Position numbers and translations under genes: made by a program. Source: an uncultured Solirubrobacterales bacterium (GTDB taxonomy: Bacteria; Actinomycetota; Thermoleophilia; Solirubrobacterales; Solirubrobacteraceae). Taken from it: a DNA stretch of 64,000 nucleotides. Shown in pieces: positions 5,262 through 38,144 of this stretch (the stretch's first letter is position 1; every line of letters starts with the position of its first letter). Below the pieces are notes generated by a model. That model was not told the origin of the DNA. It saw only the letters and a program-made list of their open reading frames with translations, and searched no databases. Location of the stretch: NCBI GenBank assembly GCA_963747875.1, contig CAVVGU010000002.1, positions 70,829-134,828 of the forward strand, written 5' to 3'.

Positions 5262-5511
5262 CAGTGGGCTGGAGGGTAGATGCCGCGCGCGCCGGCTGCC
5301 CTCTCGGGGCCGTCCGCCCCGGGGCCGTCCTCGATGTTTTTTGGATGAGGACCCCTCCGGGGTCCCCGCGGCGTGCGTGGCCCGCACCCGCGCGGTGCGT
5401 CAGGACTAGCCACGGCACCTGGAGCCATCACCGAAGTCGTGTTATAAACGCCAATCATTACAGGGTCTCCGTAATGACCCAAAATTCGGGCAAGGAGCTC
5501 GGCGCGGGGAC

Positions 5512-6582
5512 TCAGCCCTCCACGATGCCGCCCTGCGCGTGGATCGTGCGCTGCAACTGCTCCCCGCGCAGCGTGAGCCGCCACGCGTTCGGCCCCCCAC
5601 GGCCGACCTCGCCGTCGCCGCCGTTGAGGATCAGCCCCAGGTGCAGCAGGCGCTGCAGCAGCTTCGAGGTCTGGCCCTGGTCCGCGATCCCCGCAGCGTC
5701 ACCCACCTGACGGTTCGACGCCCCCGGCCGCGCGGCGATCGCCAGCAGCACCCGCACCGTACGGTAGGTCAGGCGCATGTCCAGGCCCCTCAGCGGGTCC
5801 TCGCGCACACCGGGCCTCGCCGCCCGGACCTTCGGCGCGGGCCGCGCAAGCTCCCGAGCCGCCGCCGCCGACCCCAGGTAGGGCAGCACGACCATCCCCA
5901 TCAGCGGGCTCGCCAGGCTCGTCAACGGGAGTCCGTTGCGGGCCGGCGCCGCACCGCGCGTCCGCGCACCAGCACGCGTAGGCGCCCCGTCCGAGACCGA
6001 CTCAGAGCCCCGCGCCATCCCCGCGCCCCGCTCGGACAGGCGCGTGTGCAGCACCGCGAGCACCGCGCCGACGACACCCTCTCCCGTCAGCGGCGCCACC
6101 TCCCCGCGTCTGGCTTCCCCGCGGCCCTCCTCGACCACGGCGACGAGCACCCGCACCACCTCCGCACGGCGCTCCAACGCCCGCGGGCCCGCGCCGAGCG
6201 CATGCACCACACAAAGCGCGCCGAGATCGGGCTCCTCGTCGAAGAACCCCAGCAGCGCCACCAGCGCGCCGCGCACCCGCTCGCGCCAGCGCCCCGCGCC
6301 CTCCCACGCAGGCAGCACCCGCGCCGCTGCGCGCTCCACCGCCTGATCGAACGCCGCCAGAAAACACTCCTCGCGGTCCGCGAACAGTTCGTAGAACGTC
6401 CGGCGCGAAACGCCCGCGCGGGCGACAATGTGCGCGACCGTCGCGCCCCCGGCGCCGCGCTCGGCCACCACCTCACAGAGTGCGCCGAGGACCCGCGTGC
6501 GCTGGATCTCATCGACCTGCTCGCGCGCGAAGGAGACACCCTCCTCCCCGACCCGCAGCCGGGTGACGCTTTTCCTCGACAC
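5512..6582 (-). CDS. type R1: dual-HTH regulator (TetR-type N-terminal HTH plus C-terminal MarR-like winged helix)
   Basis: The N-terminus TVAHIVARAGVSRRTFYELFADREECFLAAF is a TetR_N signature. The C-terminus LTYRTVRVLLAIAARPGASNRQVGDAAGIADQGQTSKLLQRLLHLGLI looks like a MarR/ArsR-type wHTH. A Gly/Arg/Ala-rich linker joins them. The GTG start lies 28 nt downstream of the A1 stop. Confidence 0.8.
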   Translation of the reverse strand: MSRKSVTRLRVGEEGVSFAREQVDEIQRTRVLGALCEVVAERGAGGATVAHIVARAGVSRRTFYELFADREECFLAAFDQAVERAAARVLPAWEGAGRWRERVRGALVALLGFFDEEPDLGALCVVHALGAGPRALERRAEVVRVLVAVVEEGRGEARRGEVAPLTGEGVVGAVLAVLHTRLSERGAGMARGSESVSDGAPTRAGARTRGAAPARNGLPLTSLASPLMGMVVLPYLGSAAAARELARPAPKVRAARPGVREDPLRGLDMRLTYRTVRVLLAIAARPGASNRQVGDAAGIADQGQTSKLLQRLLHLGLILNGGDGEVGRGGPNAWRLTLRGEQLQRTIHAQGGIVEG

Positions 6583-6610: not shown

Positions 6611-9547
6611 TCACCCCCCCCGCTTCCCGCGACGGGCACCGGCCTTCCCGCCCTTACCGCGCCTGTGCGCAGCCTTCTTCTTGGACGCCTTCTTTGCCTT
6701 CGGGCAGCCGGTGACCGCGATCTTCGTGCTCTCCCGTATCAGATCCCCGTTCTGCGCAAGGAATTCCGTCGGCATCGCCAGCGCGCCCTTGCAGAGGTTC
6801 CCGTTCGCCGCCAGCGCCGAGTAGGGGCCCTGCGGCAGCGTCAGTTCGAAGCTGCCGATCGGGTCGTCGGGGACCGTGTGAAACGTGCTGCTCGTGATCC
6901 CGGTCTTTTCGTTGATGAACGTTTCCCCGTGCAGGTCGAGTGTCACGCCGTAGCCCTGGAGGACCATCACAAGTTCGGGGAACTTCGCGCCACCGTAGGA
7001 GACGAAGTACGCCGGGCCCGTCAACGGCACGGGCAGGATTGGAGTGGTCGCCGTGGCGTGCCCGACCGCGGAGTCCGCAGGGCACGATGCCGGGTTCGCC
7101 TCGAATGTCGCCGCGAGGCAGGCCTTGCGCAGTGTCGTCAGCCGGGAGGGTAGACGCTTGGGGAGTTCGACTTTGACGAGTTTGATGTTCGTCTGCGTGC
7201 CCTGCGGCGCATCCGGGTACGCCAGGTGCACCGTGAGGCTCGCCCCGTTCGCTTTGCTGGTCTTCCCCGAGCTCGAGACCTTGAACTGGGGTTTGAACTG
7301 CAGGTTCTGGCAGTTCGCCATCTGGAAGGAGTTCGTGACCGTCGCGAAATCCTGGTCGGCTGGGTTCGCCGGTTCGGCGCCCCCACCACCGACGGTCGCG
7401 GCGAAGCTCTCGGGGTCGCAGTTGGTCGGGTTGATCATGAAGTTCGGCCGGTCGATGTAGACGCGGATGTCACGGACATGGATCACGATCCCGTCGATGA
7501 TGTGCGGGATCGGGTCGGACGCTTTCGCGTCGACCGTCACAATCGCGGTTTCGGGGTTGATGACCAGCGCCTCCCTGACGACGACCGTCCCGAGGTCGAA
7601 CGGGCCGACCTTCGCGCTCGTGATCGCGACGATCGAGAACGGCGCACCGTTGTACGGGCCCGCCATGTAGACCTTCCCCGGCGTGTAGGCGAGCACCGAG
7701 CCGACCCCGGCGCCGACGAGGGAGTGCCCGATTTCGCTCGCCGCGGGACACGACGGTTCGGCCTCCTCCTGCGCCCCGCTCACGTGCTTGGCCGCTTCGA
7801 TGTCCGCGTCCGGGCAGAACGGGACCCCGGTCAGTTTCGCGGTCAACCCGGCGGGTAGGATCGAAGTGAACCTGGTGATCTCCTGTTCGCCGTCGTTGCG
7901 GGTGATGCGGATATCCATCGGGCTGTACGCTCCGGCGCTGTTATTCAACGTGCCAGCGACGATCCCCGGATGAAACGGCGGGACGCCACCCGCCGGGCAG
8001 GGGCCGCCGCCGATCCCGTTTTCGATCTGGAAGGAGCTCAGCAGGTGGCGCGCTTCAAGCGGCGCCGACCACGGCGAGAGCTCCGCTTCGGTCGTGTACG
8101 TCCCGCACGCCGCCGGGCTGATCAGCGGCGAGGCCGCTCCCTGGCGCAGCTTCAGCGTGAACTTGCTGAACGGGACCTGCGGGCTTTCATCGAACGTCGT
8201 GACGAGCTGGCCGGTCACGGGGTTCGGTTCGATATGCCCCTGCAGCCTGACGACGATCCCGCGGAACGGGTCCTTCACGACGACATACAGCGCGAGCAGC
8301 GACCCGAACTTATTATCGAACGGCGTCGCGATATAGATGTTGCCCGTCAGCTTTTCCGCGAGCACCGGTGTTTCCACTTCCACGGTGCCGATCTTCGATT
8401 CCGCCGGACAACCAGTGCCGGGCAGCGAGGAGAAGGTTTCCGCTTCAAGCTGCTGTGGCGTGCATGTGCCGAGACCGACGGCCAGCGAGGGGTTGGCGGT
8501 GTAGCCCACGGGCAGCACGACCGTTGTGTCCTTCAGGTTCGACGCCGCCACCACTTCCGGGAACGCCCAGTTCTGCGGCACCACAAGCGAGATGTTCAGG
8601 CCGCTTGAGGATTCCGCCGAGCCGGTCGTGGGCGCGACTTCGATCGATGGGTGAAACGGGACGCGTTCGCATTCCACGATCGGACCGACCTGGGTTTCAG
8701 CTTCGGAGTAGCGCCCCGGTTCCTCCCACGAGTCGGCCCGCATCCTCGCGGTGAACGGGCCACAGCTCGTCGGGTTCGCCAGAAACGGCAGGTGCGGGAT
8801 ATCGACCGCGTTTCCGCCCCCGAAGCATTCCACGGTTTCGCTGCTAGTCGTCGTCTGGCAGACCAGTCCGCGTTCGGCGTCGTGCACGTGCGAGGCGGGA
8901 ATGCCCCATGTCGTGACTGAGATTTCGTGGGGTTCGGTGAGCGAAGCGATATCGGGGGCTGTGACCGTCAGCCCGGAGTCCCCCGGGCGGACCGTGATCG
9001 GCAGCACCTGGACAAACCCGAGTGCCTTGAAGCCGAGCTCGGCCACGATCCCGGGCGAATTGACTTCCATGTTATACACCGGGAAGATCATCCTCACGGG
9101 GTGCTTGGTCCCGAACGTCAGAGCCAGCGCGATCGTCCCAACCTGCGTATCCGGCGGACAGCTCGAAGTCCCCGAGCCCCCACCACCAGACGCCACAGCA
9201 GTCAGCAGCGCAGACGTGCACGTTGGTAGGGCGGTGTTATTGCCAACAAAGCCGGCGGGCAGTTCGACGATCGTTTCACGGACGTCGCCCAACGGCTTAC
9301 CCAGCGCGTCATGCGTGAAATTGAAGGCGACCGTGAGATCCTCATTGGCGCCCGCCTGGCTCGTCGAGGTGCTCACGTGAAAGCTTCCCGGTTCTATTTC
9401 GAATGGCTGTTCGCTCGGCGCCGCCGCTGCCGATCCCACGAACAGAAGGCCCACCACAAGCGCAAGCATCGCAAACATACCCATGCGCCACCTGCCAGCA
9501 CCGACGCGCGCCACCCCAGCCCGATACCTGCCGTCAAGGGCGATCAT
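6611..9547 (-). CDS. type A1: large secreted Cys-motif repeat protein with polybasic C-terminal tail (unknown family)
   Basis: 978-codon ORF with a signal-peptide-like MGMFAMLALVVGLLFVGSAAAAP. It has four modules, each with C-x(9-23)-C-P-x(4)-[IV]-G (CPPDTQVG, CPAESKIG, CPAASEIG, CPADSAVG). It ends in VTGCPK plus a K/R tail finishing KRGG. The ATG overlaps the B1 stop (ATGA 9544-9547). Confidence 0.85.
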   Translation of the reverse strand: MIALDGRYRAGVARVGAGRWRMGMFAMLALVVGLLFVGSAAAAPSEQPFEIEPGSFHVSTSTSQAGANEDLTVAFNFTHDALGKPLGDVRETIVELPAGFVGNNTALPTCTSALLTAVASGGGGSGTSSCPPDTQVGTIALALTFGTKHPVRMIFPVYNMEVNSPGIVAELGFKALGFVQVLPITVRPGDSGLTVTAPDIASLTEPHEISVTTWGIPASHVHDAERGLVCQTTTSSETVECFGGGNAVDIPHLPFLANPTSCGPFTARMRADSWEEPGRYSEAETQVGPIVECERVPFHPSIEVAPTTGSAESSSGLNISLVVPQNWAFPEVVAASNLKDTTVVLPVGYTANPSLAVGLGTCTPQQLEAETFSSLPGTGCPAESKIGTVEVETPVLAEKLTGNIYIATPFDNKFGSLLALYVVVKDPFRGIVVRLQGHIEPNPVTGQLVTTFDESPQVPFSKFTLKLRQGAASPLISPAACGTYTTEAELSPWSAPLEARHLLSSFQIENGIGGGPCPAGGVPPFHPGIVAGTLNNSAGAYSPMDIRITRNDGEQEITRFTSILPAGLTAKLTGVPFCPDADIEAAKHVSGAQEEAEPSCPAASEIGHSLVGAGVGSVLAYTPGKVYMAGPYNGAPFSIVAITSAKVGPFDLGTVVVREALVINPETAIVTVDAKASDPIPHIIDGIVIHVRDIRVYIDRPNFMINPTNCDPESFAATVGGGGAEPANPADQDFATVTNSFQMANCQNLQFKPQFKVSSSGKTSKANGASLTVHLAYPDAPQGTQTNIKLVKVELPKRLPSRLTTLRKACLAATFEANPASCPADSAVGHATATTPILPVPLTGPAYFVSYGGAKFPELVMVLQGYGVTLDLHGETFINEKTGITSSTFHTVPDDPIGSFELTLPQGPYSALAANGNLCKGALAMPTEFLAQNGDLIRESTKIAVTGCPKAKKASKKKAAHRRGKGGKAGARRGKRGG

Positions 9548-12500
9548 TTCGCACCTCCCGGCCGCCGCACAGACCGTTTCACGCCGGCAGCCTTCCTTCG
9601 TCTCTTGACGGCGCGCCTCTGCCTCTGCTGCTTCTTCCTTTTCTTCGTTTTCGGCGTCGCCTTCTTGATCGTCTCACTGGATTCTGGGGCGCTGGCCACG
9701 ACGTCTCCGGCGCCCTGGAAGCTCGCGCTCGACGGCGTCAGATCGTTCGGGGCCACGAACGGCACCGCGCAGGAATCCCCTTCGCATTCCACCGCAGCAG
9801 GCGGCGGCGGCGGGAAGCCGCCATCGATCCGCGCGTCATAGACATCACCTGCCGTGTCCGTATCCTGGGGAACAAGCGATTCGTGGGTCGCAAAGAACAC
9901 GTCCCGGCCCGACGGACTCGCACCGACCAACTCGCTCAGATAACCACCGCCCCGGCCACCGGATATCAGCGCGAGACAGCCCTCCACAGCCGCACAGCCA
10001 TCGACACCCTCACGGCGCCACTCATACACATCGCTCGACCTCGACCGGAAGAATTCTTCAGGTTCGGCGCCAGGTTCGGTGGAAGGGCCTATTTCGCCGT
10101 CGCTGTCCTGCGGCACCAGAGCGTCCGGTGTTTCAAAGAAGACGAAGTCGCCGTTTTCCGACGCGAACACCTGACTCGGCGTGCCGTCGAAGCCATAGAT
10201 CGCATAGAGGGCGGTGGAGGCGAACCTCGGCCGCGGGTCGAATGGCGATGCGCACGAAATACACTCAATGACGTTTTCGCTGCTGTCGTAACGATAGATC
10301 TGCTTGCCCACTTCGTCTCGACCGAGGCCGCCGGGGACGCCGGGAAAGCCTCCCGAAGTTCCTTCGAAAACAAGGTAGCGCCCGTCGGCGCTCACGTTCA
10401 CTATTTCACTGAAATATAGGGGAACGTAGTGAAGGGTTTTGCTTGACACATCATACCGGTAAAGCGCTGACTGGCCTGTCCCAGCCTGACCTTCGGGCGT
10501 CAGGGCCGCTTGAGTCGAAATGTAGATCGTCGAAAAATCGGCTGAGACCTTGACGAAGAACTGTCCTGGCACAGTGAAGAGGTGTTCAGCCGTTTGCGTC
10601 CCGGTGTCATACAGGAAGGCTTCGTGAGCCCCTCCGTTGACGTGTTCGAGCAGGAGCGAGCTGCCCTGGGAATTCGCGGCCAGAAACTTGTATTCGCCGA
10701 TGTCGACGGTTTCCACACCATTGACGCGCTCATAAAGATGCGTCTGCGGTCCGCCGTTTTCCAGTTCGCTTTCAAGTTGTTCATGTGCGGGGCATTGACT
10801 GCCCGACACAGCGTAAAAGAAGACACGGGCGCCATCGGACGAGACGGAGTGCGCGCTGCTCGTCGGCGCACCGCCACCGCGCGGACGGATCGCGAGCCCT
10901 TCGATGCCCCGCGTCATCGCGGCACCACACGTACCGATCGGCGCACCCGGGGTCCCACTCTGCACATTGACCTGGCGCAACTGTCCTTCGGAGTATTCGT
11001 AGAGATCGTTCCCGCTCTTGGTCGCACTCACGTGCCCGGGCACCAGCGCACGATCTTCGGTGCCGATGATCAGCTTGCCTAGATCGGGGGACGCCGCAAC
11101 CAGGAGCGGATTGGAGGTCACGTACTTTCTCGGGATCGACGCGATCGACAGGTAGGGACCAGCGGGAGGACCGACCTGGAGCTCGACCGTCGGCGATGCG
11201 GACACTGGACTATCGTCCCATCCGACCTGCATACCGGCTTCGGTCAGGTCCGGATTGAACACCACCGGAACATAGGAGTCGATCGCGGCCTGCGGCTGCG
11301 GAGTCGCGGAGGTCATCTGCCACCCTCCGGATGTCCGCGAGAAGAAGTAGTTCGACTTGCTGGCGTCAGGACTCGACCCCCACTGCGTGCCCGGCGCATG
11401 CAACATGAAATGTTCACCATCTTCACTCACGCGAAATTCATCGGTGATACCAATGCCTGTATCCGTGTCCTGCGCTCCGTTCTTTTCGGCGGGCGTGACC
11501 TGCTCATAGGCACGACAGTCCGGCAACGCAGCCGACGGGCCAATGCGGAGCGCTTCATTGGGACAGCCTTCGCTCACACCTACCTCCGGCAAGACCGGCA
11601 CCGTCAAGGTCTGCTCACCGCTGTGAACACCCTGCGGGGCGGCTTCGTTGCTTGCAATCAGCCGGTAGCGGTAGGTGACGCCAGGCTGAAGTTCGGGGAG
11701 ATCCCCACCTGCGCCGACGTAAGCGTAGCCCGAGCCCGCATCCATTTCGGAGGTGGTGGCAGCCCCGGCAAACCCCTGTTCTTCGAAATGCTGCTGCGAT
11801 ACGTATTCAAAATGGTAGTGCGAATCGGCGCCGTGGGGGTCGACAGCCCCCAGCGCCACCATATCTTCGCCGCTCACAGAGTGCACCGCATACGTGGTGG
11901 CGGTGGGCGGCCCCGCCGTTTCAAAGCTCTTTACAGGCGAGGTGGCGCCCTTATGAACACCAGGTGCCGGTTCGGATTCTGCGAAGAGCCGGACATAGTA
12001 GGTGGTGGCAGGACTCAGGCCACTGAGATCCCCCGAGACAGAACTAAAGCCCGCTTCGTTTTCTTCCCCCGCAGGAGTGGTGCCACTCACTCCGGGCGCG
12101 ACATGGAATTCTCCATTTTCGCTGTTCGCGTATTCGAACTGCCAGTGGACTTCCTCGCCGTGAGGCTTGAAGAAGCCCTTCAATTCAGCAGCAGTTCCCT
12201 TGATGCCAGTAAATTCTTGTACCCTGACAAAGGTCGGATAAAACGGCACGGCTTCACAACGATAATCCCGCTTTTCGCCCGTAGATTCTTCGGTTTCGAA
12301 CGGGGCCGTTCTGGTGCCCGAGGCGTTGGTGGCAGTCAGACGCACGTAGTAGACAACTTCAGCTGTCAGTCCCGCAAACGTGGCAGCAAGAGGCACGTCC
12401 ATCGGATGGGCTTCCATTTCGGCCTGGGTCACCGTGCCGCTGGCGCCCGGAACCAGCGTCCAGGGACCGGCTTCGCTACCGGCATATTCAAAGGCCCAGC

Positions 12501-12819
12501 TTACAGGCTGATTTTCGGTGCTGAAATGCCCGAGCTCGCCTGTAAGTTTCATTGACATGTGAGTTACTCCCACACACATGGCTCCGTTAGGTTCTGGCGG
12601 CGAGCTAGCGAGAGCAGAGCCCGGTACAACCCAGAGGAAAAGCCCCACCAGTGATAAGGCCGAAAAGAGAGATACGCGATAAACGATGGGCGCTCCCCTC
12701 CTTTGGCTGCCCAGGAGGACACGGAGCATGGCGAAGCGACCGGTCTCCGGTGTGGAAGTGGACTTCGCGTAGTGCTCTGTGGTTTTCACGATCGTGCCTT
12801 TCTCGGTTTCAATGTTCAT
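9544..12819 (-). CDS. type B1: secreted Fn3-like repeats plus TolB/PD40-like beta-propeller protein with polybasic tail
   Basis: About four repeats have the pattern W.FEY...G.W....L.GL.P.T.YY.R (Fn3-like). These are followed by CPNEALR...LPDCRAYEQVTP, then repeated DG..VFF / SADGRYLVFE propeller-like blades. The C-terminus is ECEGDSC...SFQGAGDV plus a 40-aa K/R tail. The start is uncertain: ATG 12819 or ATG 12729, the latter directly preceding the signal-like LFSALSLVGLFLWVVPGSALA. Confidence 0.8.
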   Translation of the reverse strand: MNIETEKGTIVKTTEHYAKSTSTPETGRFAMLRVLLGSQRRGAPIVYRVSLFSALSLVGLFLWVVPGSALASSPPEPNGAMCVGVTHMSMKLTGELGHFSTENQPVSWAFEYAGSEAGPWTLVPGASGTVTQAEMEAHPMDVPLAATFAGLTAEVVYYVRLTATNASGTRTAPFETEESTGEKRDYRCEAVPFYPTFVRVQEFTGIKGTAAELKGFFKPHGEEVHWQFEYANSENGEFHVAPGVSGTTPAGEENEAGFSSVSGDLSGLSPATTYYVRLFAESEPAPGVHKGATSPVKSFETAGPPTATTYAVHSVSGEDMVALGAVDPHGADSHYHFEYVSQQHFEEQGFAGAATTSEMDAGSGYAYVGAGGDLPELQPGVTYRYRLIASNEAAPQGVHSGEQTLTVPVLPEVGVSEGCPNEALRIGPSAALPDCRAYEQVTPAEKNGAQDTDTGIGITDEFRVSEDGEHFMLHAPGTQWGSSPDASKSNYFFSRTSGGWQMTSATPQPQAAIDSYVPVVFNPDLTEAGMQVGWDDSPVSASPTVELQVGPPAGPYLSIASIPRKYVTSNPLLVAASPDLGKLIIGTEDRALVPGHVSATKSGNDLYEYSEGQLRQVNVQSGTPGAPIGTCGAAMTRGIEGLAIRPRGGGAPTSSAHSVSSDGARVFFYAVSGSQCPAHEQLESELENGGPQTHLYERVNGVETVDIGEYKFLAANSQGSSLLLEHVNGGAHEAFLYDTGTQTAEHLFTVPGQFFVKVSADFSTIYISTQAALTPEGQAGTGQSALYRYDVSSKTLHYVPLYFSEIVNVSADGRYLVFEGTSGGFPGVPGGLGRDEVGKQIYRYDSSENVIECISCASPFDPRPRFASTALYAIYGFDGTPSQVFASENGDFVFFETPDALVPQDSDGEIGPSTEPGAEPEEFFRSRSSDVYEWRREGVDGCAAVEGCLALISGGRGGGYLSELVGASPSGRDVFFATHESLVPQDTDTAGDVYDARIDGGFPPPPPAAVECEGDSCAVPFVAPNDLTPSSASFQGAGDVVASAPESSETIKKATPKTKKRKKQQRQRRAVKRRRKAAGVKRSVRRPGGAK

Positions 12820-12907: not shown

Positions 12908-13705
12908 CTACCCAGCGCTCACCGCCCAGGTGCCGTCATAGCCCTCGTTTTCTCCAGCGGTCTGATGGGTCACGACGGCGCCGGTCGTTCCTGCCCCTGT
13001 TTCGGACACCCCGGGATGTTGGATGAAACCGATGCCTTCGCTGAAGCCGCCCGAGGCTCCACCTTCGAATAGACAGAGATTGCCTGGGTCCGCCTTCGGT
13101 TCGACCGGCGTCCCACCGCAACCGGCGGGGATTTCATTTTTCGCGACCTGTTCGGCGGTGACAAAGTGCGCTTCCGCCGTCGCGATCGGGGCAGCGAGCG
13201 GGATCGCGAAGGAGACCGCGAAGTGAATCACCTTCGAGGCGCCGGATTCGGCGAACCAGGCCCCCGTCTCCGTCTTGCCTCCAGGCAGGGTTTCGGTGAA
13301 GCCGGTCTGGCCGTTGCAGGCGTACGTCGCGCTCCCCGCCCCCGCCTTGAATTCCGCGCCGCCGCGTTCTTCGCACTTCGACACACCGACCGGCACAGCC
13401 GTGTTCGTGACGCTCGTACCCGGGGTGCCGTTCGTGCCGGCTTTGCCTTCCGGTCCCTGAGGACCCGGGGCACCCTTTTCGCCTGGGGCACCGTTGCTCC
13501 CGTTCGTCCCGTTGGTCCCATTCGCGCCCGCCGCGCCGGCCTTGCCCTGCAGCGCCTTCAGCACCTTCGGGCTGATCTGCTTCGTCGAGGTGATCACATA
13601 CCGGCTCGCGGCATACGCCCCACCGCTCATCGCGAACACCACAGCGACTGTCACCGCGACGTTCGCGTACGTGACGCGCCTACGTATCCCAGAGAACATC
13701 AGCAC
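12908..13705 (-). CDS. type C1: secreted collagen-like (GXY repeat) protein with C-terminal globular domain
   Basis: The signal peptide ends AYA/AS. About 15 uninterrupted G-X-Y triplets (GKAGAAGANGTNGTNGSNGAPGEKGAPGPQGPEGKAGTNGTPGTS) are encoded at about 13412-13546. A domain of about 165 aa follows. GAGGAGG lies just upstream of the GTG/ATG start. Confidence 0.85.
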   Translation of the reverse strand: MLMFSGIRRRVTYANVAVTVAVVFAMSGGAYAASRYVITSTKQISPKVLKALQGKAGAAGANGTNGTNGSNGAPGEKGAPGPQGPEGKAGTNGTPGTSVTNTAVPVGVSKCEERGGAEFKAGAGSATYACNGQTGFTETLPGGKTETGAWFAESGASKVIHFAVSFAIPLAAPIATAEAHFVTAEQVAKNEIPAGCGGTPVEPKADPGNLCLFEGGASGGFSEGIGFIQHPGVSETGAGTTGAVVTHQTAGENEGYDGTWAVSAG

Positions 13706-14633: not shown

Positions 14634-17600
14634 TCACCCCCTCCGCTTCTTAGCACGCGGATGGGCATGCCGGTTCTTCGGCTTCTTGTGCACCGCCTTC
14701 TTGGCCTTCGGACAGCCGGTGACCGCGATCTTCGTACTCGTATGGATCTGCGCGCCGTTCTGCCCCACGAATTCCGTCGGCATCGCCAGCGACGTTTTGC
14801 AGAGATTGCGGTTCGCCGCAAGCGCCGAGAACTGGCCCTGGGGCAGTGTCAATTCAAACGTACCGACCGGAACGTCGGGGATCGCCTTGAACGTACTACT
14901 CGTAATCCCCGTCTTTTCATTGATGAATGTCGAACCGACCAGATGCACCGTCGCGCCATAGCCCTGCAACACGATCACCAGGCTCGGGAACTGTTCCCCA
15001 CCGTGCGAAACGAAGTACGCCGGACCCGTCAACGGCACCGGCAACACCGGTGTGCTCGCAGTCGCGTGGCCGACGATCGACGCCGCGGGGCACCCCGCGG
15101 GGTTCGCTTCGAACGTTTCCGCCTTGCACGCCTTCTGCAGCGTCGTCAACCGCGAGGGCAGCGCCTTCGGCAGTTCCACTTTGACCCTGGCGATGTTCGC
15201 ATCGTACGGCCCCGCCGGGTAGCCCAGTTTGACGGTCAGGCTCGCGCCGCCCGCCCTGGTGGTTTTCCCCGACGTCGAAGCAGTCAGCTTCGGCTTGAAC
15301 GCGAGCACCGCGCAGTTCGTGATCTGAAACGGCACCGAGAGCGCCGAGGTGGACCCTTCGCTCGAACCGAGGTTCCCGGTGATCGCGAGCGGGCTGCAGT
15401 TCGTCGGGTTGAACGTGAAATCGGGCCGGTCGATCGACACGTTCACGTGCTTGATCTGCAGGGGGATCCCGTCGATGATGTGCGGGATCGCGTACGGACC
15501 CGAGGGGTCCGTCGTGATCGTCAACTGCGCGGTCGTCGGATCGACTTCGATCTTCGCGCGGACGATCACCTTCCCCAGGTCGAACGGGCCCGCCTTCGCC
15601 GGGTTCACGATCGACAGACCATACGGCGCGCCGTCGTACGGGCCGGTGATGAACACTTCGCCGCCTGTCACGGTGTACGGGTTCCCCCCGAGGCCGACAC
15701 TGACGATCGTATGCCCGATCAGGCTTTCCGCCCCGCAGGTGCCCTGGTCGGCCTGCGGTTCCCCGCACAGCTTCACGGTGGAGAGCGTGCCGAGCAGCCC
15801 CGGGGGCATCTTCAGCTGGATCGCCTGCAGGTTCTGCTCCCCGTCCCCGCGGGACATCGTCATCCGGAACGGGCTGAACCCGCCGGCCTGGATACTCGTC
15901 GTACCCGCCGTCAGGCTCGGCTCGAACGGCAACGGGTCAGAGCACGCCGCGCCGTTCGGACCCGAGGCGATCTGGAACTCCGAGGAGGATTCCACCGGTG
16001 CGTTCCCCGACCACGGCGTGATTGACGCCGTCGTCGTATATGTGCCGCACAGAGCCGGAGTACCCAACGGCGCCCGCGACCCACCGAAGAAATGCAGACT
16101 TAGATCTTCGAACGGAAGCTGCGGGGTGTTTTCGAACGTCGAGACCAACTGCCCGGTCACCGGGCTCGGCGTGACCTGCCCCGCGAGCTTCACCAGCACA
16201 CCCGACACGGGGTCCCGCGCGACGACGTACAGCGCGATCAGCGACCCGAACGGGTTCGCGTCCTGCTGCGCCAGATACACCGCGCCGACCAGCGGATTCG
16301 GCAGTAGCGGCGTATGGATTTCCACCGTCCCGACCTTCGCCGATTCCGGGCACGTCTGTTCAGCTGAGCTTTCGAGGCCGATTTCGCCCAGGCCACATGC
16401 GGACAGGTCATCCGCGCCGGCCGGATTCAACGCCACGCCCGCCGGCAGCGTCACCGTGGTGTTCCTCACGTTCGCCTCCCCGTCACCGGCCGGGTTCAAA
16501 TCGGCAGCCTGGGGAACGTGCACGCCGACAGTCAAACCCGTCGGCGAACTGCCGGCCTGCCCATCCGGCGCGACCTCGATCGACGGTTCGAAGCTCAAGC
16601 GGTTGCACCCGTCCAGCCCGTACGGTTCACCGGCGACATTCGCAGAGGTGTATTCCGTGGTCGCGAACTTCCCGGGCTGCTCCCACGAATCGGCTTCCAT
16701 ACTGGTCCGCAACGGGCCCGTACACGACGTCGGCAGCACCAGGAACGGCTGCCCGTTCGCCTGCCCCGGACAGGAGACTTCCTGAAGTCCGCTTTCTCCG
16801 AAGCTGAACTCATCCAGGCATCCACCGCGCACAGTGTCGTGCCGGGTTTCGCTCGGGTCGCCCCAAAACGTAACCTGGCTGCCGATGAAGGCGACGTCCT
16901 GGAGGATATTGGGCACCGTGACGACAACGCCATAGTCTCCCCCGGTGCGCACCGATGTGTCGAGCACCACCGGTCCGGCAAGCGTCGTGAAGCCGAACTT
17001 CGCGGGCTCTCCCACCGATGGTGTGAGGTTGTACAGAGGCTTCGATTCGGCCCACGGCACCTGTGTGCCTGCGCGTACATTGGTGACTATCACCGTGGCG
17101 ACGCCGATGGCTGAGTCGGCAGGGCATTCGACCTGTTCTTCGCTGGTCAGAGTCGACTGGTGCGTGAAGACGTATGTGCTGCACTGCGGCAGCACAGTTG
17201 GGTTACCGACCAGCCCAGGCGGCAGATTGAAGCGCAGGTCCTTGGTCAGTCCGAGCGGCTCGACTTCCGCGAGAGCTTCGTTGGCCCCTGAACCGGACTG
17301 GCGAGGCACCGACTGCGCGCTCAGCCCGAACGTCGTCGTGAACTGAAACGGATGCGATCCAGCCTGGGTATCCAGCGCGCCGCCCTCTTCTTCGGGAGTC
17401 AATTCATAGTTTTCGACCCCGTACGGTGCCGGCGCGCCCCCGAGCGCCAGCGGCCGCCGCTGGACGACCGGGGACGTCCCGCCGCCAGACACGCTCACTT
17501 CGTTCTCGCCACGGCCCGCACCGGGCGCCACCGTGACCGTCATCGCGATCATCAACCGTTCGTAAGGCAGCAGCGGCCCGCTGTAGGTGCACGTCAGCGT

Positions 17601-17939
17601 CGCCAGCGTGCAGCTCGTGAAGGCCGCCGCGTTCGTCCTGTTCAGTTCGCTGCCTCCCCCTTCTCCGTAGATATTGGTCGCAGTCACGCCCGCGGGCAAC
17701 CTGTCCACAACAGTCACAGGCTGTTCGAACCCGTTGGCCATCGCGTCGCCCAGATTGCTCACTTCCACCACCACCCGGTCTTCGATAGCCGCAGTGTTCG
17801 CCGGCGCGGAGACGGTATCGACATGCCACCACGGCGTCGCCGCAGACGCCCGGCCCGCACCGCATGACGCGACCAACACCACCGCGACAGCCGACAGGCC
17901 CGCCCTCACGACAACTCTCCTGAGCGTATATCCACTCAT
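14634..17939 (-). CDS. type A2: large secreted Cys-motif repeat protein with polybasic tail
   Basis: The start is set at ATG 17939 (MSGYTLRRVVVRAGLSAVAVVLVASCGAGRASA), overlapping the B2 stop as ATGA 17936-17939. The mature N-terminus is TPWWHV, followed by a DUF11/CARDB-like first domain (VEVSNLGDAMANG...VVDRLPAGV). Further motifs are AGSHPFQFTTTF, CPADSAIG, CPESAKVG, CGAESLIG and CPAASIVG. The C-terminus is VTGCPKAKKAVHKKPKNRHAHPRAKKRRG. Confidence 0.85.
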   Translation of the reverse strand: MSGYTLRRVVVRAGLSAVAVVLVASCGAGRASAATPWWHVDTVSAPANTAAIEDRVVVEVSNLGDAMANGFEQPVTVVDRLPAGVTATNIYGEGGGSELNRTNAAAFTSCTLATLTCTYSGPLLPYERLMIAMTVTVAPGAGRGENEVSVSGGGTSPVVQRRPLALGGAPAPYGVENYELTPEEEGGALDTQAGSHPFQFTTTFGLSAQSVPRQSGSGANEALAEVEPLGLTKDLRFNLPPGLVGNPTVLPQCSTYVFTHQSTLTSEEQVECPADSAIGVATVIVTNVRAGTQVPWAESKPLYNLTPSVGEPAKFGFTTLAGPVVLDTSVRTGGDYGVVVTVPNILQDVAFIGSQVTFWGDPSETRHDTVRGGCLDEFSFGESGLQEVSCPGQANGQPFLVLPTSCTGPLRTSMEADSWEQPGKFATTEYTSANVAGEPYGLDGCNRLSFEPSIEVAPDGQAGSSPTGLTVGVHVPQAADLNPAGDGEANVRNTTVTLPAGVALNPAGADDLSACGLGEIGLESSAEQTCPESAKVGTVEIHTPLLPNPLVGAVYLAQQDANPFGSLIALYVVARDPVSGVLVKLAGQVTPSPVTGQLVSTFENTPQLPFEDLSLHFFGGSRAPLGTPALCGTYTTTASITPWSGNAPVESSSEFQIASGPNGAACSDPLPFEPSLTAGTTSIQAGGFSPFRMTMSRGDGEQNLQAIQLKMPPGLLGTLSTVKLCGEPQADQGTCGAESLIGHTIVSVGLGGNPYTVTGGEVFITGPYDGAPYGLSIVNPAKAGPFDLGKVIVRAKIEVDPTTAQLTITTDPSGPYAIPHIIDGIPLQIKHVNVSIDRPDFTFNPTNCSPLAITGNLGSSEGSTSALSVPFQITNCAVLAFKPKLTASTSGKTTRAGGASLTVKLGYPAGPYDANIARVKVELPKALPSRLTTLQKACKAETFEANPAGCPAASIVGHATASTPVLPVPLTGPAYFVSHGGEQFPSLVIVLQGYGATVHLVGSTFINEKTGITSSTFKAIPDVPVGTFELTLPQGQFSALAANRNLCKTSLAMPTEFVGQNGAQIHTSTKIAVTGCPKAKKAVHKKPKNRHAHPRAKKRRG

Positions 17940-20900
17940 CGCCCGCCCCCCTTTCCACTCGTTCTCGTAGCGCGAGCCCGTCGCGCTCGCCTGACCTCGT
18001 GTCCTCTCGCTTTCCCTCTGCGCCTCTTCCCTTTCGCCCTGCGCTTCGTCTTTTTTTTGCGCTTGGAAACGTGCGGCTTGACCACTTCCGGCTTGGCTTC
18101 TTCGAGTATGTTGCCGGCCCCCGAGAACGTCCCGCTCGGCGGAGCTCCGAACACTTCGGGCTGCGGGGACGGTGCGGCCTTGCACGAATCCCCAGAAGTG
18201 CACGGTGGCGGCGCCACCGGAGCGGTCGTACACGGCACGCTCGTCGTGCAGACGTGGGCGTCATACACGTCAAGGCTGTTGTCGTAGTCCGCGGCGCTCA
18301 GTCGGCTCGCGGTCAGGAAGAACACGTCGTTCCCCGTTTCGCTGGCATCCACAAACGCCGATTCCTGATCGGACGTACCCGAGGAGATCAGGCTCACACA
18401 GCCCCCGGAACGCGTGCTGAACGTAGCGCTCCCCATTTCGCAGCTGCCGATACCCGCGGGCTCATACTCGTATGCGTCCAGCAGCCCGTTCGTGTCCTGC
18501 GGCACGAGCGCGTCGGGGCTATCGAAGAACAGCCGGCCGCTGTCCGATAGATACCGCGGCTGATACAGCGAGCGTTCAAAGCGAACTTCGACCCAGCCCG
18601 GGACGAAGCCAGCGACCCACTGACCCTTCAGGGCGGCGTCGGTCCTGAGATTGCGGTCCCCGAGCACGTTTGTCGCCGTGTCGAGCACCCCCACGGGCCG
18701 TGCCCCCGTCGGATCGCACGACGCGCACACCAGATGCCCGGTGAGCGCGTCGTACAGGTACACCTCGTCGTCGGGCTGTCCACTGCCCGCGTCGATGTTG
18801 TCATAGCCGGTCAGCGACCTGCTCGACATGAACGCCAGGTAGCGGCCGCCCGGCGAGACCCTCGATCTCACGCCGTTGAGATTCACCGGCCCCCCGAACG
18901 CCTTGCTGTACCAGTCATGTTCGTCGGCGCTCGACAGCGTGGCGATATAGCCGATCGTCCATTCGCCGCCGTGCTCGTGCGCCACATAGAGGTTGTCTTC
19001 GCCCGCCACCGCGGCGCTCCCGCTTGCCAGGACGCCCGTCGCCACGAAATACACGTACGAACCGTCTTCGCTTGCGCCGAGCACGGCGTCCTTCACGCCC
19101 GCGCTGGCTTCGCCGGCGAGGTGGTCGACCGTGAGATCCATCTGTGTAGCGGTTCCTGTGTCGAACTCGTACAATTCACCATCTTCCAGAAAGAAGATCC
19201 GTGACCCGTCACTGCTCATCGTCTGCAGGATCGGATTATGACGGGCGCCGATCTGCGTGGTCTTCCCGGCGGTCATGTCGCGGACGTACAGCGTCGCGTG
19301 TTCCCGTTCAGAGTAGTACGGGTTACCCCCCAACGACCAGACCACCCAGCGGCCGTCGCTCGATACCGCGCGTCGGGCCGAGCCGAACCCATTCCCTTCG
19401 CCACCCAGCTGCGCCCCGGCCGTCGCTTCTTCGTCGGGCAGGACGCTCACCAGCTGCGGTCGCCCGGCGCTCCACTCATATAAATATTGATCCACGTTTT
19501 CTGTCCTGACTTCCGGGATTCCGGGGGTCAGCGCCAACTCGGACTTGATGATCACGTGACTCAAATCCGGTGTCGCTGCGACGAATTCCACCGCGGATTC
19601 ACGGTTTTTTAGCGATTCCCCCACTTCCCCTTCGAGTTTTGTGCCCGCTGGGACATTCGCCGCCGTGAGGAGCGGCCTATAGCTCCCATCGGTATCGTTG
19701 CGCAGGTACAGTTTTCCTTCCGTCGCTTCAGGCGAAAGAGGCGTCCGTGCGGTCCCCTCCTGCCGGACCGCGGCAAGCGACAGGTCCGGGGAGAATACCC
19801 GATATTCAGGGCCCTCGACGTCGATTTCCTGCTGTGTTCCAAGGCTGTGCGGCGGCGTGATGTCCTGCGACTCCCAGCCGGCGGGGCCGCGCCTGGAGAG
19901 GATCTGCGAGATCGGGGTCTTGCCCACCGGGTTTTCCCCGATCGCTTCGGTCGCCGCATAGGCGATCCCGCTGCCATCGTCCGCCGCCTGCACCGGGGTA
20001 CCGCCGAAGACTTCGATCAGGGCGCCGCTCTTGTTTGGCGGCGACACGAGTTCCCAGGCGCGCCCATCCGCCAGAGCCGCCCCCTGTCCGGCGACCACCT
20101 GCGTGCTGAACGTACGATCGGCGCCTGCGACGGTCCCGACTGCGCTGACCGTCACGACCCGGTAGTGATAGACCGTGCCCGCCTGCAGTCCCTGCACGTG
20201 ATAGCCGACCGGCACATAGCCCATACCGCTACCCACACTCCCGGACAGGGCGTGTCCGTAGGAGGTGTCCGTCCCGTATTCGAGCCGGTATTCCGTGCTC
20301 GCGCCCAACGGGTCTACCCGCGCTGACAGCGTCGCGCTCGTGCCCGCAACATTCGTCGCCCACGGGCCTTCGATCAGCGCCGGCGGCGTCGTTTCGAGCA
20401 CCCGGTCCGGGCCGACGGTCGCATGGCCGGCCGAATCGTCGGCCACGAGCCGGTAGTGGTAGGTCCCTCCCGGGACCAGGCCCGTCAATTCGACGACGGC
20501 CGTGTGATCTTCGAAGAGGCCGGACGCGGCCGTGGCGCTGGGCGTGCTCGTTGCGCTCGCGAAGCCCCCGCTCAGATATTGAGTCTCACCGACGTATTCG
20601 AAATGGTAGGTCGTTGCGTTGCCCTCAGGGTCGACCTGGGCTTCGAGCGTCGCGGCGCCCCGCAGCCCGGACACGGATGACTCGCTATCGATCAACGGCC
20701 CCGGCGGGGGCGCCGCCAACACCCATACCCTGTTCTGTTCAAAGGCTGACGCATACAGCCGTTGCGTGACCGCCGAGAACGCCAGGCCCCCGTTGCCGCC
20801 AGCGACGGTGCCAGACCCGAAGTTCGCAAGCTCCCCGCCGGCCGAGTCGTACTCCAGCACATGGAAGCCGCCGCCGGAATCGCCGACATACACATCGCCC

Positions 20901-21766
20901 GCGGCATCGAGCGCCAGCGCCGTCACCGACGTGCTGCCCGGATCGAGCTGAAAGCCGGCTTCGATCCCTCCCGGTTCGAACTCCCGCACCCCTGGGACGC
21001 CCCGGTCATACACATACACGTCCCCCGTCGCGTTCACCGCCAACGCCTTCACAGCGGCCGTGCTGGAGAGACCAGACAGCGAGATGCTTTCCTTCCAGGC
21101 GCCCGCGGCTGTGAACACCTGCACACGCGCCATATCGCCGACGTACACGTCGCCGCCCGGACCGACAGCGACGAAGCCGCCGCCCGACCAGCTGAATTCC
21201 CCGTCCCCGGCCCCTTCAGTCCCAAAGCCGCATTCTTCTGTGGCGAGACACACATCCCCGCTCGTGCGCCGGTTCACATGCCCGCCGAACATCAATAGAA
21301 ATTCCCCGTTCGGCCCGTACTTCTCCACGCGTTCGCGCGGGTAATCGGCCACATACACATCCCCGAGGGAGGGGCTTCCAAGTTCGTCGTCGACCGCCAC
21401 TCCGCTGGGGTATCCACCGAATGGACCACCGACCGTCGAGCGTTCCTTCTGTTCACGCCCTTCTTCACATACGCTCGTGCAGATCTGAAATTCTTCGAGC
21501 CCGCTCAGCACCCCTTCGCCCCACGCCAGCGCGAAGGGGCCCCCCGCTTCGAACTTGTCGACGCGATGGTTTCCAGAATCCCCGACATACACGTCACCGG
21601 CCGCGTCGACCGCGACACCGGTCGGAGATAGGAGCTGTCCCGCGCCGTTACCGGTGCTGCCGAACTGGGTCGCCGCCCCCGCGCAATCCACGGAGAGCGT
21701 GAAGACACCACCAAACGCACACACCGATACCAACAGAGGCACGACAAGCCGGCGCACACCCCACAT
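17936..21766 (-). CDS. type B2: secreted NHL-repeat plus Fn3-like plus PD40-like beta-propeller protein with polybasic tail
   Basis: The start is set at ATG 21766 (MWGVRRLVVPLLVSVCAFGGVFTLSVDCAGA). NHL-type blades include GDVYVGDSGNHRVDKF, GDVYVADYPRERVEKY and GDVYVGDMARVQVF. Two Fn3-like units carry TYHYRLVA and TVYHYRVV. Propeller blades include SSDGRWVVW and SPGGRYLAFMSSRSLTGYDN. The C-terminus is CTSGDSC...TFSGAGNI plus a K/R tail. Confidence 0.85.
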   Translation of the reverse strand: MWGVRRLVVPLLVSVCAFGGVFTLSVDCAGAATQFGSTGNGAGQLLSPTGVAVDAAGDVYVGDSGNHRVDKFEAGGPFALAWGEGVLSGLEEFQICTSVCEEGREQKERSTVGGPFGGYPSGVAVDDELGSPSLGDVYVADYPRERVEKYGPNGEFLLMFGGHVNRRTSGDVCLATEECGFGTEGAGDGEFSWSGGGFVAVGPGGDVYVGDMARVQVFTAAGAWKESISLSGLSSTAAVKALAVNATGDVYVYDRGVPGVREFEPGGIEAGFQLDPGSTSVTALALDAAGDVYVGDSGGGFHVLEYDSAGGELANFGSGTVAGGNGGLAFSAVTQRLYASAFEQNRVWVLAAPPPGPLIDSESSVSGLRGAATLEAQVDPEGNATTYHFEYVGETQYLSGGFASATSTPSATAASGLFEDHTAVVELTGLVPGGTYHYRLVADDSAGHATVGPDRVLETTPPALIEGPWATNVAGTSATLSARVDPLGASTEYRLEYGTDTSYGHALSGSVGSGMGYVPVGYHVQGLQAGTVYHYRVVTVSAVGTVAGADRTFSTQVVAGQGAALADGRAWELVSPPNKSGALIEVFGGTPVQAADDGSGIAYAATEAIGENPVGKTPISQILSRRGPAGWESQDITPPHSLGTQQEIDVEGPEYRVFSPDLSLAAVRQEGTARTPLSPEATEGKLYLRNDTDGSYRPLLTAANVPAGTKLEGEVGESLKNRESAVEFVAATPDLSHVIIKSELALTPGIPEVRTENVDQYLYEWSAGRPQLVSVLPDEEATAGAQLGGEGNGFGSARRAVSSDGRWVVWSLGGNPYYSEREHATLYVRDMTAGKTTQIGARHNPILQTMSSDGSRIFFLEDGELYEFDTGTATQMDLTVDHLAGEASAGVKDAVLGASEDGSYVYFVATGVLASGSAAVAGEDNLYVAHEHGGEWTIGYIATLSSADEHDWYSKAFGGPVNLNGVRSRVSPGGRYLAFMSSRSLTGYDNIDAGSGQPDDEVYLYDALTGHLVCASCDPTGARPVGVLDTATNVLGDRNLRTDAALKGQWVAGFVPGWVEVRFERSLYQPRYLSDSGRLFFDSPDALVPQDTNGLLDAYEYEPAGIGSCEMGSATFSTRSGGCVSLISSGTSDQESAFVDASETGNDVFFLTASRLSAADYDNSLDVYDAHVCTTSVPCTTAPVAPPPCTSGDSCKAAPSPQPEVFGAPPSGTFSGAGNILEEAKPEVVKPHVSKRKKKTKRRAKGKRRRGKARGHEVRRARRARATRTSGKGGGR

Positions 21767-21895: not shown

Positions 21896-22762
21896 TCAGC
21901 GGCCCCCCTTCATATCGGCCGGCCCGTGCTCCGCGCGCGTCTGCGCATGGATCGTGCGCTGCAGTTGCTCCCCGCGCAGCGTGAGCTGCCACGCGTTCGG
22001 CCCCCCGCGACCGACCTCGCCGTCGCCCGCGTTGAGGATCAACCCGAGGTGCAGCAGGCGCTGCAGCAGCTTCGAGGTCTGACCCTGGTCGGCGATCCCC
22101 GCCGCGTTCCCGACCTGACGGTTCGACGCCCCCGGCCGCGCCGCGATCGCCAACAGCACCCGCACCGTGCGGTAGGTCAGGCGCATGTCGAGACCCTTCA
22201 GGGGGTCCTCGCGCGCACTGGACCGCACCGCCATGACCTTCGGCGCGGGCCGCGCCAGCTCCCGCGCCGCCGCCGCAGGGCCCAGGTAGGGCAGCACGAT
22301 CATCCCCATCAGCGGGCCCGCCAGGCTTGTCAAGGGCGGGCCATTACGCGTCGACTCCCTGTCGAGGTCGGATAGGCGCGTGTGCAGCACCGCGAGCACC
22401 GCGCCGACGACGCCCTCTCCGCTGAGCGGCGCCACCTCGCCCCGCCTCGCTTCCTCGCAACCCTCCTCGACCGCTGCGACGAGCACGCGCACCATCTCCG
22501 CTCGGCGCTCCAGCGCTCGCGGGCCCGCGCCGAGCGCATGCACCACACAGAGCGCGCCGAGATCGGGCTCCTCGTCGAAGAGCCCCAGCAGCGCCACCAA
22601 AGCACCCCGCATCCGCTCCCGCCAGCGCCCCGCGCCCTCGAACACGGGGACCACCCTGGCCGCCGAGCGCTCCACCGCGTGATCGAACGCCGCCAAGAAG
22701 CAGTCCTCGCGGTCCGCGAACAGTTCGTAGAACGTCCGGCGCGATACGCCCGCCCGGGCCAC
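21896..22762 (-). CDS. type R3: dual-HTH regulator paralog lacking a canonical start upstream of its TetR HTH (possibly defective)
   Basis: Homology to R1/R4 continues upstream of the GTG at 22762 (ISDGVSFAREQVDEIQRTRVLGALCEVVAERGASGATVAHI) up to an in-frame TGA at 22904-22906. That stretch contains no ATG, GTG, TTG or CTG, so translation from 22762 would start inside the HTH. The C-terminal wHTH is intact and the linker is short. Confidence 0.6.
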   Translation of the reverse strand: MARAGVSRRTFYELFADREDCFLAAFDHAVERSAARVVPVFEGAGRWRERMRGALVALLGLFDEEPDLGALCVVHALGAGPRALERRAEMVRVLVAAVEEGCEEARRGEVAPLSGEGVVGAVLAVLHTRLSDLDRESTRNGPPLTSLAGPLMGMIVLPYLGPAAAARELARPAPKVMAVRSSAREDPLKGLDMRLTYRTVRVLLAIAARPGASNRQVGNAAGIADQGQTSKLLQRLLHLGLILNAGDGEVGRGGPNAWQLTLRGEQLQRTIHAQTRAEHGPADMKGGR

Positions 22763-26168: not shown

Positions 26169-26173
26169 TCCTC

Positions 26174-31746: not shown

Positions 31747-31774
31747 GCCGTTGGCGACCCGGGCGATGGCCCAC

Positions 31775-37989: not shown

Positions 37990-38144
37990 GCCTTTCCTAT
38001 CTCGGGTGGAGCACTGCCTCGATCCTCGCTGTGGCACCGGCCTCATCCTCGGATGTGGCGCTAGTCATCCTTGGTATCGCCGTCGCCGGGCTCCCCGAAG
38101 GCGCAGCTGTGGGCCTCGGGGAGCCGCATGTGCAGGCGTGGGGT

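Follow-up and report, generated by a model that had tools for sequence, protein, structure and literature searches.

The window that we have analysed is a 64,000-nucleotide stretch from the genome of an uncultured Solirubrobacterales bacterium (contig CAVVGU010000002.1, positions 70,829 to 134,828). Its minus strand contains, between obg (40825-42426) and proB/proA (4167-5387, 2495-4174), four tandem paralogous cassettes built around a pair of large predicted secreted proteins, B and A. Some of them include a small protein with collagen repeats, whose N-terminus holds a signal or an anchor (COL), and a regulator that fuses the TetR_N and MarR_2 domains (REG) completes the set. In the direction of transcription the order is COL4 (38864-38145)-B4-A4-REG4, B3-A3-REG3, B2-A2 followed by a truncated REG fragment, and COL1 (13705-12908)-B1-A1-REG1. 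The cassettes (5512-38864) have a G+C fraction of 0.61-0.68, versus 0.70-0.74 in the flanks (the window has 65-74% G+C). The trait of this region that is the subject of this text is found at the very end of the eight A and B proteins, all of which finish in a long stretch dominated by Lys and Arg, placed behind a conserved motif.

The eight open reading frames (ORFs; A1-A4 and B1-B4, all on the minus strand) are open down to the stops assigned to them. The tails are not the product of mis-called stops, a circumstance that the sequence-only reading had set beforehand as a ground for abandoning its proposal, nor of chance; homologues keep the same architecture while the sequence of the tail diverges. 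The C-terminus of B follows a constant order: D[VI]YD, a pair of cysteines, a Pro/Ser/Thr-rich stretch that ends in [ST]F.GAG[DN][VIL], a short linker and finally 44-58 residues with 21-25 Lys plus Arg. In B1 (9544..9789) these elements are ECEGDSC, the Pro/Ser/Thr linker with SFQGAGDV, a linker of 12 amino acids (aa) and a 44-aa tail (11 Lys, 10 Arg and one Asp/Glu) before the stop. B2 (17936..18205) has CTSGDSC, TFSGAGNI and a tail of 52 aa (11 Lys, 14 Arg), B3 (26174..26443) has CTSGDAC, TFAGAGNV and a Lys/Arg tail, and B4 (34642..34926) has CEGDAC, TFSGAGDL and a 58-aa tail (8 Lys, 16 Arg and neither Asp nor Glu). This overall order had been read correctly from the letters, but the single spacing given for the cysteine pair is exact only in B2 and B3 (C-T-S-G-D-[SA]-C), since B1 and B4 have one residue fewer (C-E-G-D-[SA]-C).

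The A proteins end in IAVTGCPK followed by 26-30 residues rich in Lys, Arg and His (12-15 Lys plus Arg, and His in addition), and they close in KRRG or KRGG. Both the motif and the closing residues are those first described, where the length was given as 23-28 residues. In A1 (6611..6715) the motif, (IA)VTGCPK, precedes a 28-aa Lys/Arg-rich stretch ending in GKRGG; counted from the Pro, these are 30 aa with nine Lys, five Arg and no acidic residue. The Lys/Arg/His-rich stretch of A2 (14634..14723) ends in AKKRRG, A3 (22908..22997) has a stretch of the same composition, and that of A4 (31775..31876), rich in Lys and Arg, ends in GKRRG.

Taken together, the eight tails hold 12-25 Lys plus Arg and 0-2 Asp plus Glu, and the protein bodies contain 5-7% Lys plus Arg; the binomial probability of the excess lies between 3e-10 and 5e-18 (seven of the eight tails, B3 left out). 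A hydrophobic span is absent from the last 150 aa of all eight proteins, where the maximum Kyte-Doolittle mean over 19 residues does not exceed 1.57, and even that peak sits in folded beta-strands upstream of the tail. Reading frames, basic residue counts and hydropathy therefore agree with the original description of eight basic tails lacking a hydrophobic anchor. Between GAGN and the basic block of B there is a linker (median 11 aa) rich in Pro, Ala, Val, Leu and Ser, with a mean Kyte-Doolittle value of 0.58; in the three-part layout of motif, linker and basic block, the linker measures 4-26 aa and is rich in Pro, Ala, Val and Leu. Identity between tails is lower than between the adjacent parts of the bodies in four of the six paralogue pairs, and it is composition, rather than sequence, that appears to be conserved in them. 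Along these lines, AGR codons make up 40% of the Arg codons in the tails of the window versus 20% in the bodies, a doubling expected from single-step (transition) exchange between Lys and Arg under selection for composition.

The same ends are found in the relatives of these proteins. We have examined the best 120 of at least 542 homologues of B and the best 120 of at least 4,035 homologues of A. Among the former, 119 carry the tail, with the consensus VECEGDACSTP..PND.TPSS.TF.GAGN followed by about 11 aa and some 40 Lys/Arg-rich residues; among the latter, about 115 do, with ..NLC..MPTEF.GQNG..I..STKIAVTGC[PAG]K and 20-40 residues rich in Lys, Arg and His. An independent sample of 79 genome loci (1.6 Mb), in which a tail was called when at least eight Lys/Arg were present in the last 30 aa, gave tails in 71/79 copies of A and 24/26 of B, the tail-poor exceptions having shorter basic ends or looking truncated. 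Nowhere among these 105 copies has an LPXTG motif or a transmembrane (TM) helix replaced the tail. Other genomes also repeat the gene order REG, COL, B, A (then REG).

A degenerate pattern derived from the B C-terminus retrieved 355 confirmed loci in one-genome-per-species collections. Nearly all of the best ones (78/80) belong to metagenome-assembled genomes (MAGs) of uncultured soil Solirubrobacterales/Solirubrobacteraceae, which frequently have at least six copies each. The idea that such tails might be a general actinobacterial feature has to be given up, as they are almost entirely confined to this group. The two exceptions, a 7-kb contig assigned to Gemmatimonadales (L015, DATBBZ010000230.1) and a 524-kb contig assigned to Acidimicrobiaceae (L080, CAWILW010000003.1), carry typical B-A pairs and could be errors of binning or labelling, or else rare cases of transfer outside Solirubrobacterales. 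Within the 1.6 Mb of the independent sample, only one of 65 other ORFs with a signal peptide-like start had a basic tail, and that one is dubious; this set is biased to cassette neighbourhoods and the signal-peptide predictor is crude. The tail is no secretome-wide signal but a property of this system, in which the large acidic proteins of a single type of cassette carry it.

Tails and bodies carry opposite charges. The median net charge over the 240 homologues is +21 for the tails of B and +12 for those of A, the respective bodies having -72 and -33.5. A single tail has a net charge of about +12 to +24 over 25-55 residues, and the bodies range from -31 to -85 in the window and from -45 to -100 among the homologues of B. 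Charge compensation between tail and body was considered and discarded (none in B, weak in A). The ratio of Lys to Arg averages 14:7 in the tails of B and 10:3 in those of A, although Arg (9.6%) is far above Lys (2.2%) in neighbouring ORFs, and because of this reversal of the background Lys appears to be selected in the tails.

Structure models made with AlphaFold2 (AF2) point to a lack of folding in the same region. In the model of B1 (predicted local distance difference test score, pLDDT, of 82.3) residues 992-1061 all stay under a pLDDT of 50. In that of A3 (pLDDT 81.7) the last strand covers residues 1049-1059 and is followed by Cys1061, the mean pLDDT is 59 at 1061-1070 and values are below 50 from 1068 onwards. 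The tails are thus predicted to be intrinsically disordered. Cysteines appear in them in a peculiar manner: 72 of the B tails lack them and 43 contain two, most often separated by 7 or 10 residues, but never one or three. Such strict pairing fits disulfides formed outside the cytoplasm and argues that the tails are exported rather than cytoplasmic, a location that any electrostatic binding outside the cell would require.

Besides the plain form (KPK/KKK), the tails present two recurrent sub-modules. Motif 2 is hairpin-like (C.KG....HGKCVK). Motif 1 is LTRAQKLAKALKAC-x8-10-CEKQARKKYGP, also written RAQKLAKALKAC-x8-10-CEKQARKKYGP, and an exhaustive profile search recovered 3,709 clusters of it at 50% identity. 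It lies nearly always a few residues from the C-terminus, sometimes as two tandem copies, of proteins of 200-1,600 aa, and it contains two Cys in 102 of 103 modules (one Cys in the remaining one). Neither motif has a match in Pfam, NCBIfam or the PDB; the motif-1 module is undescribed and would deserve to be modelled as a separate family. We have discarded that motif 1 exists as a free-standing small protein, the matches of 45-95 aa being C-terminal fragments of A, B or split B on short contigs or calls from internal Met codons. An amphipathic in-plane membrane helix (of the type anchoring PBP5/6) was also rejected, as the hydrophobic moment of 0.38 is reached by 24% of shuffled sequences; that of plain KPK tails is 0.16.

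Three contexts precede motif 1: that of A (TGC.K), that of B (F.GAGN) and a third one, LLATP.IAFP.E, which corresponds to a split B. In the split-B cassettes (L082:2171-10292, L083:1535-9656 and L072:10384-16079) A lies between the two halves of B. One half, with the propeller (808 aa in L082 and L083), and the other, with NHL and fn3 domains (about 765 aa), are separate proteins, each provided with a signal peptide and with a tail (+19 and +17). No tail is present on two small, near-neutral proteins that are secreted and belong to the same operon in L082 and L083. The tail behaves as a portable, per-polypeptide C-terminal tag. In the place of the collagen-like gene, split-B cassettes have small secreted proteins of 298-299 aa.

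None of the surface-anchoring signals examined was recognisable in the proteins. The isolated tails gave no match to Pfam or NCBIfam even at E<=1, nor did the full proteins to the curated sorting and wall-binding models of both libraries (including LPXTG and -CTERM); a match to an already described sorting domain, which the sequence-only reading had named as a ground for refutation, was not found in these two collections. An LPXTG-like pentapeptide was not visible in the eight tails of the window or in 240 homologue tails, and the basic end measures 25-55 aa, versus 5-10 aa in LPXTG signals. For PEP-CTERM, GlyGly-CTERM, PGF-CTERM, MYXO-CTERM and their relatives there was no NCBIfam match and no TM helix, and no sorting enzyme for -CTERM-type signals is encoded in the 20-kb neighbourhoods examined. 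The C-terminal domain of type IX secretion has no model match in Pfam or NCBIfam either, and the region is predicted to be disordered instead of a folded beta-sandwich of some 80-100 aa. SLH, LysM, GW/SH3b, CWB2, WxL and choline-binding modules had no Pfam match in proteins or tails, and A and B show no other anchor (TM span, LPXTG or wall-binding domain of Pfam or NCBIfam). A sequence search of the PDB gave nothing for A or motif 1, and the match of a B tail to the basic ribosomal protein bL34c (E 0.0015) is only compositional.

The neighbourhoods were equally devoid of a candidate enzyme. When the ORFs of the 79 loci were clustered, no peptidase, sortase or transpeptidase gene was conserved nearby; what recurs is the regulator, A, B and the collagen-like gene. 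The other clusters are unrelated housekeeping functions (ABC ATPase, P450, acyl-CoA dehydrogenase, enoyl-CoA hydratase, DUF4143 ATPase). Neither these tails nor the A family nor motif 1 were described in the sources that we searched (libraries and literature), which also gave nothing relevant on the surface proteins or tails of Solirubrobacterales.

As for the bodies that carry the tails, they begin with a signal peptide both in A and in B. Pfam recognises NHL, fn3, Pur_ac_phosph_N and PD40 in B and nothing in A, and the sole NCBIfam match (scyF_NHL_VPEP) is located in the N-terminal NHL part. The fold of A is a string of immunoglobulin (Ig)-like beta-sandwiches, with the best (loose) matches to the Ig-like domains of PrgB, Antigen I/II C123, a mastigoneme and the MG domains of complement. 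That of B combines tandem fn3 domains with a propeller and resembles the ectodomains of ROS1/Sevenless and peptidase propellers. No enzymatic domain was found in A or B, and they look like surface or matrix structural proteins.

The two genes of each pair are tightly linked. In three of the four pairs the stop of B overlaps the start of A as ATGA (9544-9547, 17936-17939 and 34642-34645), and the fourth, B3/A3 (26168-26176), has a 5-nucleotide GGAGG spacer instead. B and A are translationally coupled; the last codons of B2 contain a Shine-Dalgarno sequence, and the arrangement of the junctions implies that the final codons of the B tail double as ribosome-binding site of A. The overlaps also place the start of A2 at 17939 (MSGYTL) and that of A4 at 34645 (MRLRS).

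All genes of the cassettes are on the minus strand. A1 (6611..9547, 978 aa) has a signal peptide and an all-beta multi-domain body of net charge -31 that belongs to no Pfam family. B1 (9544..12729, 1061 aa from MLRVLL) has a signal peptide, about four fn3-like domains and a PD40/TolB-like beta-propeller, with a body net charge of -72. A2 (14634..17939) is 1101 aa long, and B2 (17936..21766, 1276 aa) has NHL repeats, fn3 domains and a propeller in a body of net charge -85. A3 (22908..26168, 1086 aa) follows B3 (26174..29941), which comprises NHL, fn3 and a PD40 propeller. A4 (31775..34645) has 956 aa, and B4 (34642..38046), with fn3 domains and a propeller, has at most 1134 aa. The cassettes are of two types. 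Both fn3-type ones (B1/A1 and B4/A4) have an upstream collagen-like gene, which is missing from the NHL-type ones (B2/A2 and B3/A3), where A has an additional N-terminal domain. The signal peptide of A2 (17850-17939) holds a lipobox-like VASC, which is probably due to chance because its Cys is not kept in A3 or in the consensus of the family.

The collagen-like COL1 (12908..13705), upstream of B1, starts with a hydrophobic signal or anchor, continues with G-X-Y repeats and closes in a globular part that lacks a basic tail; COL4 (38145..38864) is located upstream of B4. In both, the triplets number about 15 and the globular C-terminal region, some 150 aa long, has paired Cys, an organisation that recalls trimeric fibre proteins. 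REG1 (5512..6582) lies downstream of A1, REG3 (21896..22762) downstream of A3, REG4 (30580..31803) downstream of A4 and a REG fragment of 132 aa (14195-14593) downstream of A2. These fusion regulators flanking the cassettes are unusual (288-407 aa), and their family is the commonest neighbour of the cassettes (60/79 loci). Long Arg-rich ORFs run antisense to the A and B genes (31727-34459 and 14661-16025 on the plus strand, and similar ones; up to 910 aa). They are the usual artefacts of high G+C, rich in G+C at the second codon position and lying over genes whose homologues are clear. A phage origin of the cassette was likewise discarded, the PHROGs matches coming from the collagen repeats only, and so was an origin in defence systems, for which PADLOC gave one weak sub-threshold match to B2 (PD-T4-6, E 7.9e-05, no stretch passing alone) that we have disregarded.

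The interpretation that we favour, with moderate confidence, is that the tails would be exported, disordered polycationic tethers that hold acidic ectoproteins on a polyanion. The protein would be exported by Sec and its signal peptide cleaved. The anionic envelope would then repel the folded acidic body, and the tail would bind, by means of its multiple charges, to wall glycopolymers, to the head groups of lipids or lipoglycans of the outer face or to extracellular DNA (eDNA), the protein being held in this way at or near the cell surface. Such a tail would replace the combination of motif, TM helix and short basic cluster, or the folded wall-binding repeats, used by other proteins. We infer the binding of a polyanion by the tail, the kind of polyanion and the retention at the surface that would result; the partner could be wall polymers, the membrane or eDNA. 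This account is the simplest one that accommodates the charge contrast, the conservation of composition, the choice of Lys, the predicted disorder, the signs of export, the portability, the lack of another anchor and the likeness of the bodies to surface proteins.

There is a precedent for such a tether in ScpH of Streptococcus sanguinis, in which a Lys-rich disordered C-terminal tail replaces the LPXTG of its orthologues and binds eDNA, as shown by cryo-electron microscopy and electrophoretic mobility shift assays (bioRxiv 10.64898/2026.05.25.726231). The tails described here show the sequence-level features of the polycationic class: they are Lys-rich, of low complexity, predicted to be disordered and placed at the extreme C-terminus of an exported carrier that has no other anchor. 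This class of disordered polycationic C-terminal tails (ScpH, HBHA type) is a functional one and not a homology family. Several points weigh against the tether. The polyanion is hypothetical for these uncultured Solirubrobacterales. Exporting a charge of +20 against the membrane potential is costly, and positive charges slow Sec translocation. Tail and body charge hardly vary together (rho 0.01 in B, and a weak -0.28 in A). The TPSS.TF.GAGN of B is near-invariant in a stretch that is predicted to be disordered, something that a pure charge tether would leave unexplained, and the Cys-pair sub-modules suggest structure or specificity beyond bulk charge.

This near-invariant stretch is precisely what makes one think of a new TM-less sorting or processing signal, in which an enzyme would read the motif before the tail, [ST]F.GAG[ND] in B, TGC[PA]K in A or LLATP.IAFP.E in split B, and would either remove the basic tail by cleavage or attach the protein by ligation to a partner or the wall, with the tail serving for retention or recognition. 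The three-part layout of motif, linker and basic block recalls sortase-type signals; P994, T998, P999, S1001, F1004, G1006 and G1008 are near-invariant at pLDDT <50, as for a linear recognition motif, and [ST]F.G.GN is kept even in distant B-like proteins. We nevertheless consider this unlikely: the motifs that precede the tail in A, B and the split-B halves have nothing in common, the tail of A begins right after the last folded strand and its Cys, no curated sorting model matches and the 79 neighbourhoods contain no conserved peptidase, sortase or transpeptidase gene. Decidedly unlikely, in our opinion, is a more elaborate version, a private TM-less sorting system of Solirubrobacterales in which an enzyme, or a spontaneous reaction at the invariant G-[ND], would process or cross-link the ectoproteins into a wall-associated coat, with the disulfide-closed motif 1 (RAQKLAKALKAC…CEKQARKKYGP) as its recognisable domain. 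A tail that remains cytoplasmic, acting in stop-transfer or retention and tethering the protein through the membrane, we find hardly credible. Positive charges do resist export (the positive-inside rule), and the short basic clusters of LPXTG signals act in this manner, as is generally known, but A and B have no hydrophobic span to sit in the bilayer and their tail Cys are strictly paired, as for extracytoplasmic disulfides.

The binding partner of the basic tails might also be found within the cassette itself. The tails would dock on the acidic A, B or collagen-like neighbours and build a surface layer or a fibrillar coat, in keeping with the extreme acidity of the bodies, with the fixed stoichiometry that the translational coupling of B and A suggests, with the conservation of a collagen-like, fibre-type protein in the cassette and with the many paralogous cassettes per genome. 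We look upon this assembly as rather unlikely, given that the poorly conserved sequence of the tails is easier to reconcile with non-specific binding by charge than with a defined interface and that tail and body charge are barely correlated. Alternatively, the tail might face outwards as an adhesin and bind external anionic substrates (clay or humic surfaces, polysaccharides or other cells). The source organisms come from soil metagenomes, Lys is preferred over Arg, and in HBHA, the mycobacterial heparin-binding haemagglutinin, a methylated Lys-rich C-terminal domain mediates adhesion, as mentioned in PMC6632704; this C-terminus binds sulphated glycans. In that case nothing visible would keep the proteins on the cell that produces them. 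Moreover, all the large cassette proteins, down to the two halves of split B, carry a tail, which is more in line with a tag for retention than with a site that binds a ligand; we regard an adhesin as quite improbable.

To our knowledge, nearly all that has been described of protein anchoring in monoderm bacteria comes from Firmicutes and from a small number of actinobacteria in culture, the known mechanisms being sortase signals, lipoproteins and folded wall-binding repeats. The device seen here is a different one: thousands of the largest secreted proteins of an abundant, uncultured lineage of soil bacteria end in a long disordered polycationic tail. If the tether is true, anchoring by charge, demonstrated a single time with ScpH and eDNA, would turn out to be widespread and stable in evolution, a simple sequence rule would serve to predict surface proteins in Thermoleophilia, and tags as compact as 25-55 aa would become available for surface display or matrix targeting. 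Two uncharacterised families are also brought to attention (more than 4,000 homologues of A and more than 500 of B), arranged in multi-copy cassettes with collagen-like proteins, and A and B are likely to be major components of the envelope or matrix of these soil bacteria. The signal is a clean, lineage-wide one in an uncultured group, and for it we infer a mechanism whose general idea already has a precedent.

Among the known systems that the tails bring to mind are the tripartite C-terminal signals, LPXTG/sortase, PEP-CTERM/exosortase, GlyGly-CTERM/rhombosortase and PGF-CTERM/archaeosortase. They share with A and B the location at the extreme C-terminus, the succession of motif, spacer and basic end and the portability between families. 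However, they possess a TM helix that A and B lack, and the basic part is 5-10 times longer in the latter, which, unlike them, have no model match and no cognate enzyme gene nearby (79 neighbourhoods). The basic wall-binding regions of Lactobacillus S-layer proteins attach non-covalently to anionic wall polymers and are folded domains of at least 100 aa. The likeness lies in the attachment by charge; the 25-55-aa tails are disordered, and the organisms are unrelated. An older example of a Lys-rich end that binds polyanions is HBHA of mycobacteria, which is, like A and B, an actinobacterial surface protein and has an unstructured C-terminus of about 40 aa, rich in Lys, Ala and Pro. There is no homology between HBHA and the A and B tails. 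HBHA has no signal peptide, it is the N-terminal part that holds it on the cell, and its tail binds host glycans.

The tail of ScpH is the closest tested analogue. The two are different in several respects: there is no sequence relationship between them, the ScpH tail acts together with the folded FIVAR3 domain, and the ScpH subfamily has been described only in streptococci, whereas thousands of proteins, from two or three families, carry tails of the A and B type, which have sub-modules of their own (the Cys-pair hairpin and the helix-loop-helix). Orthologues bearing LPXTG are known for ScpH, but none was found for A and B among the 105 copies. What had been put forward as a possible new anchoring or sorting signal stands as a conserved tag without TM helix and without model, but the concept is not without precedent. 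Indeed, ScpH, an LPXTG-less homologue of the C5a peptidase, is also a large multi-domain Gram-positive surface protein exported by Sec and made of fn3 and Ig domains, and it likewise ends in a Lys-rich tail of low confidence or disorder, with no TM helix, its attachment to eDNA being non-covalent.

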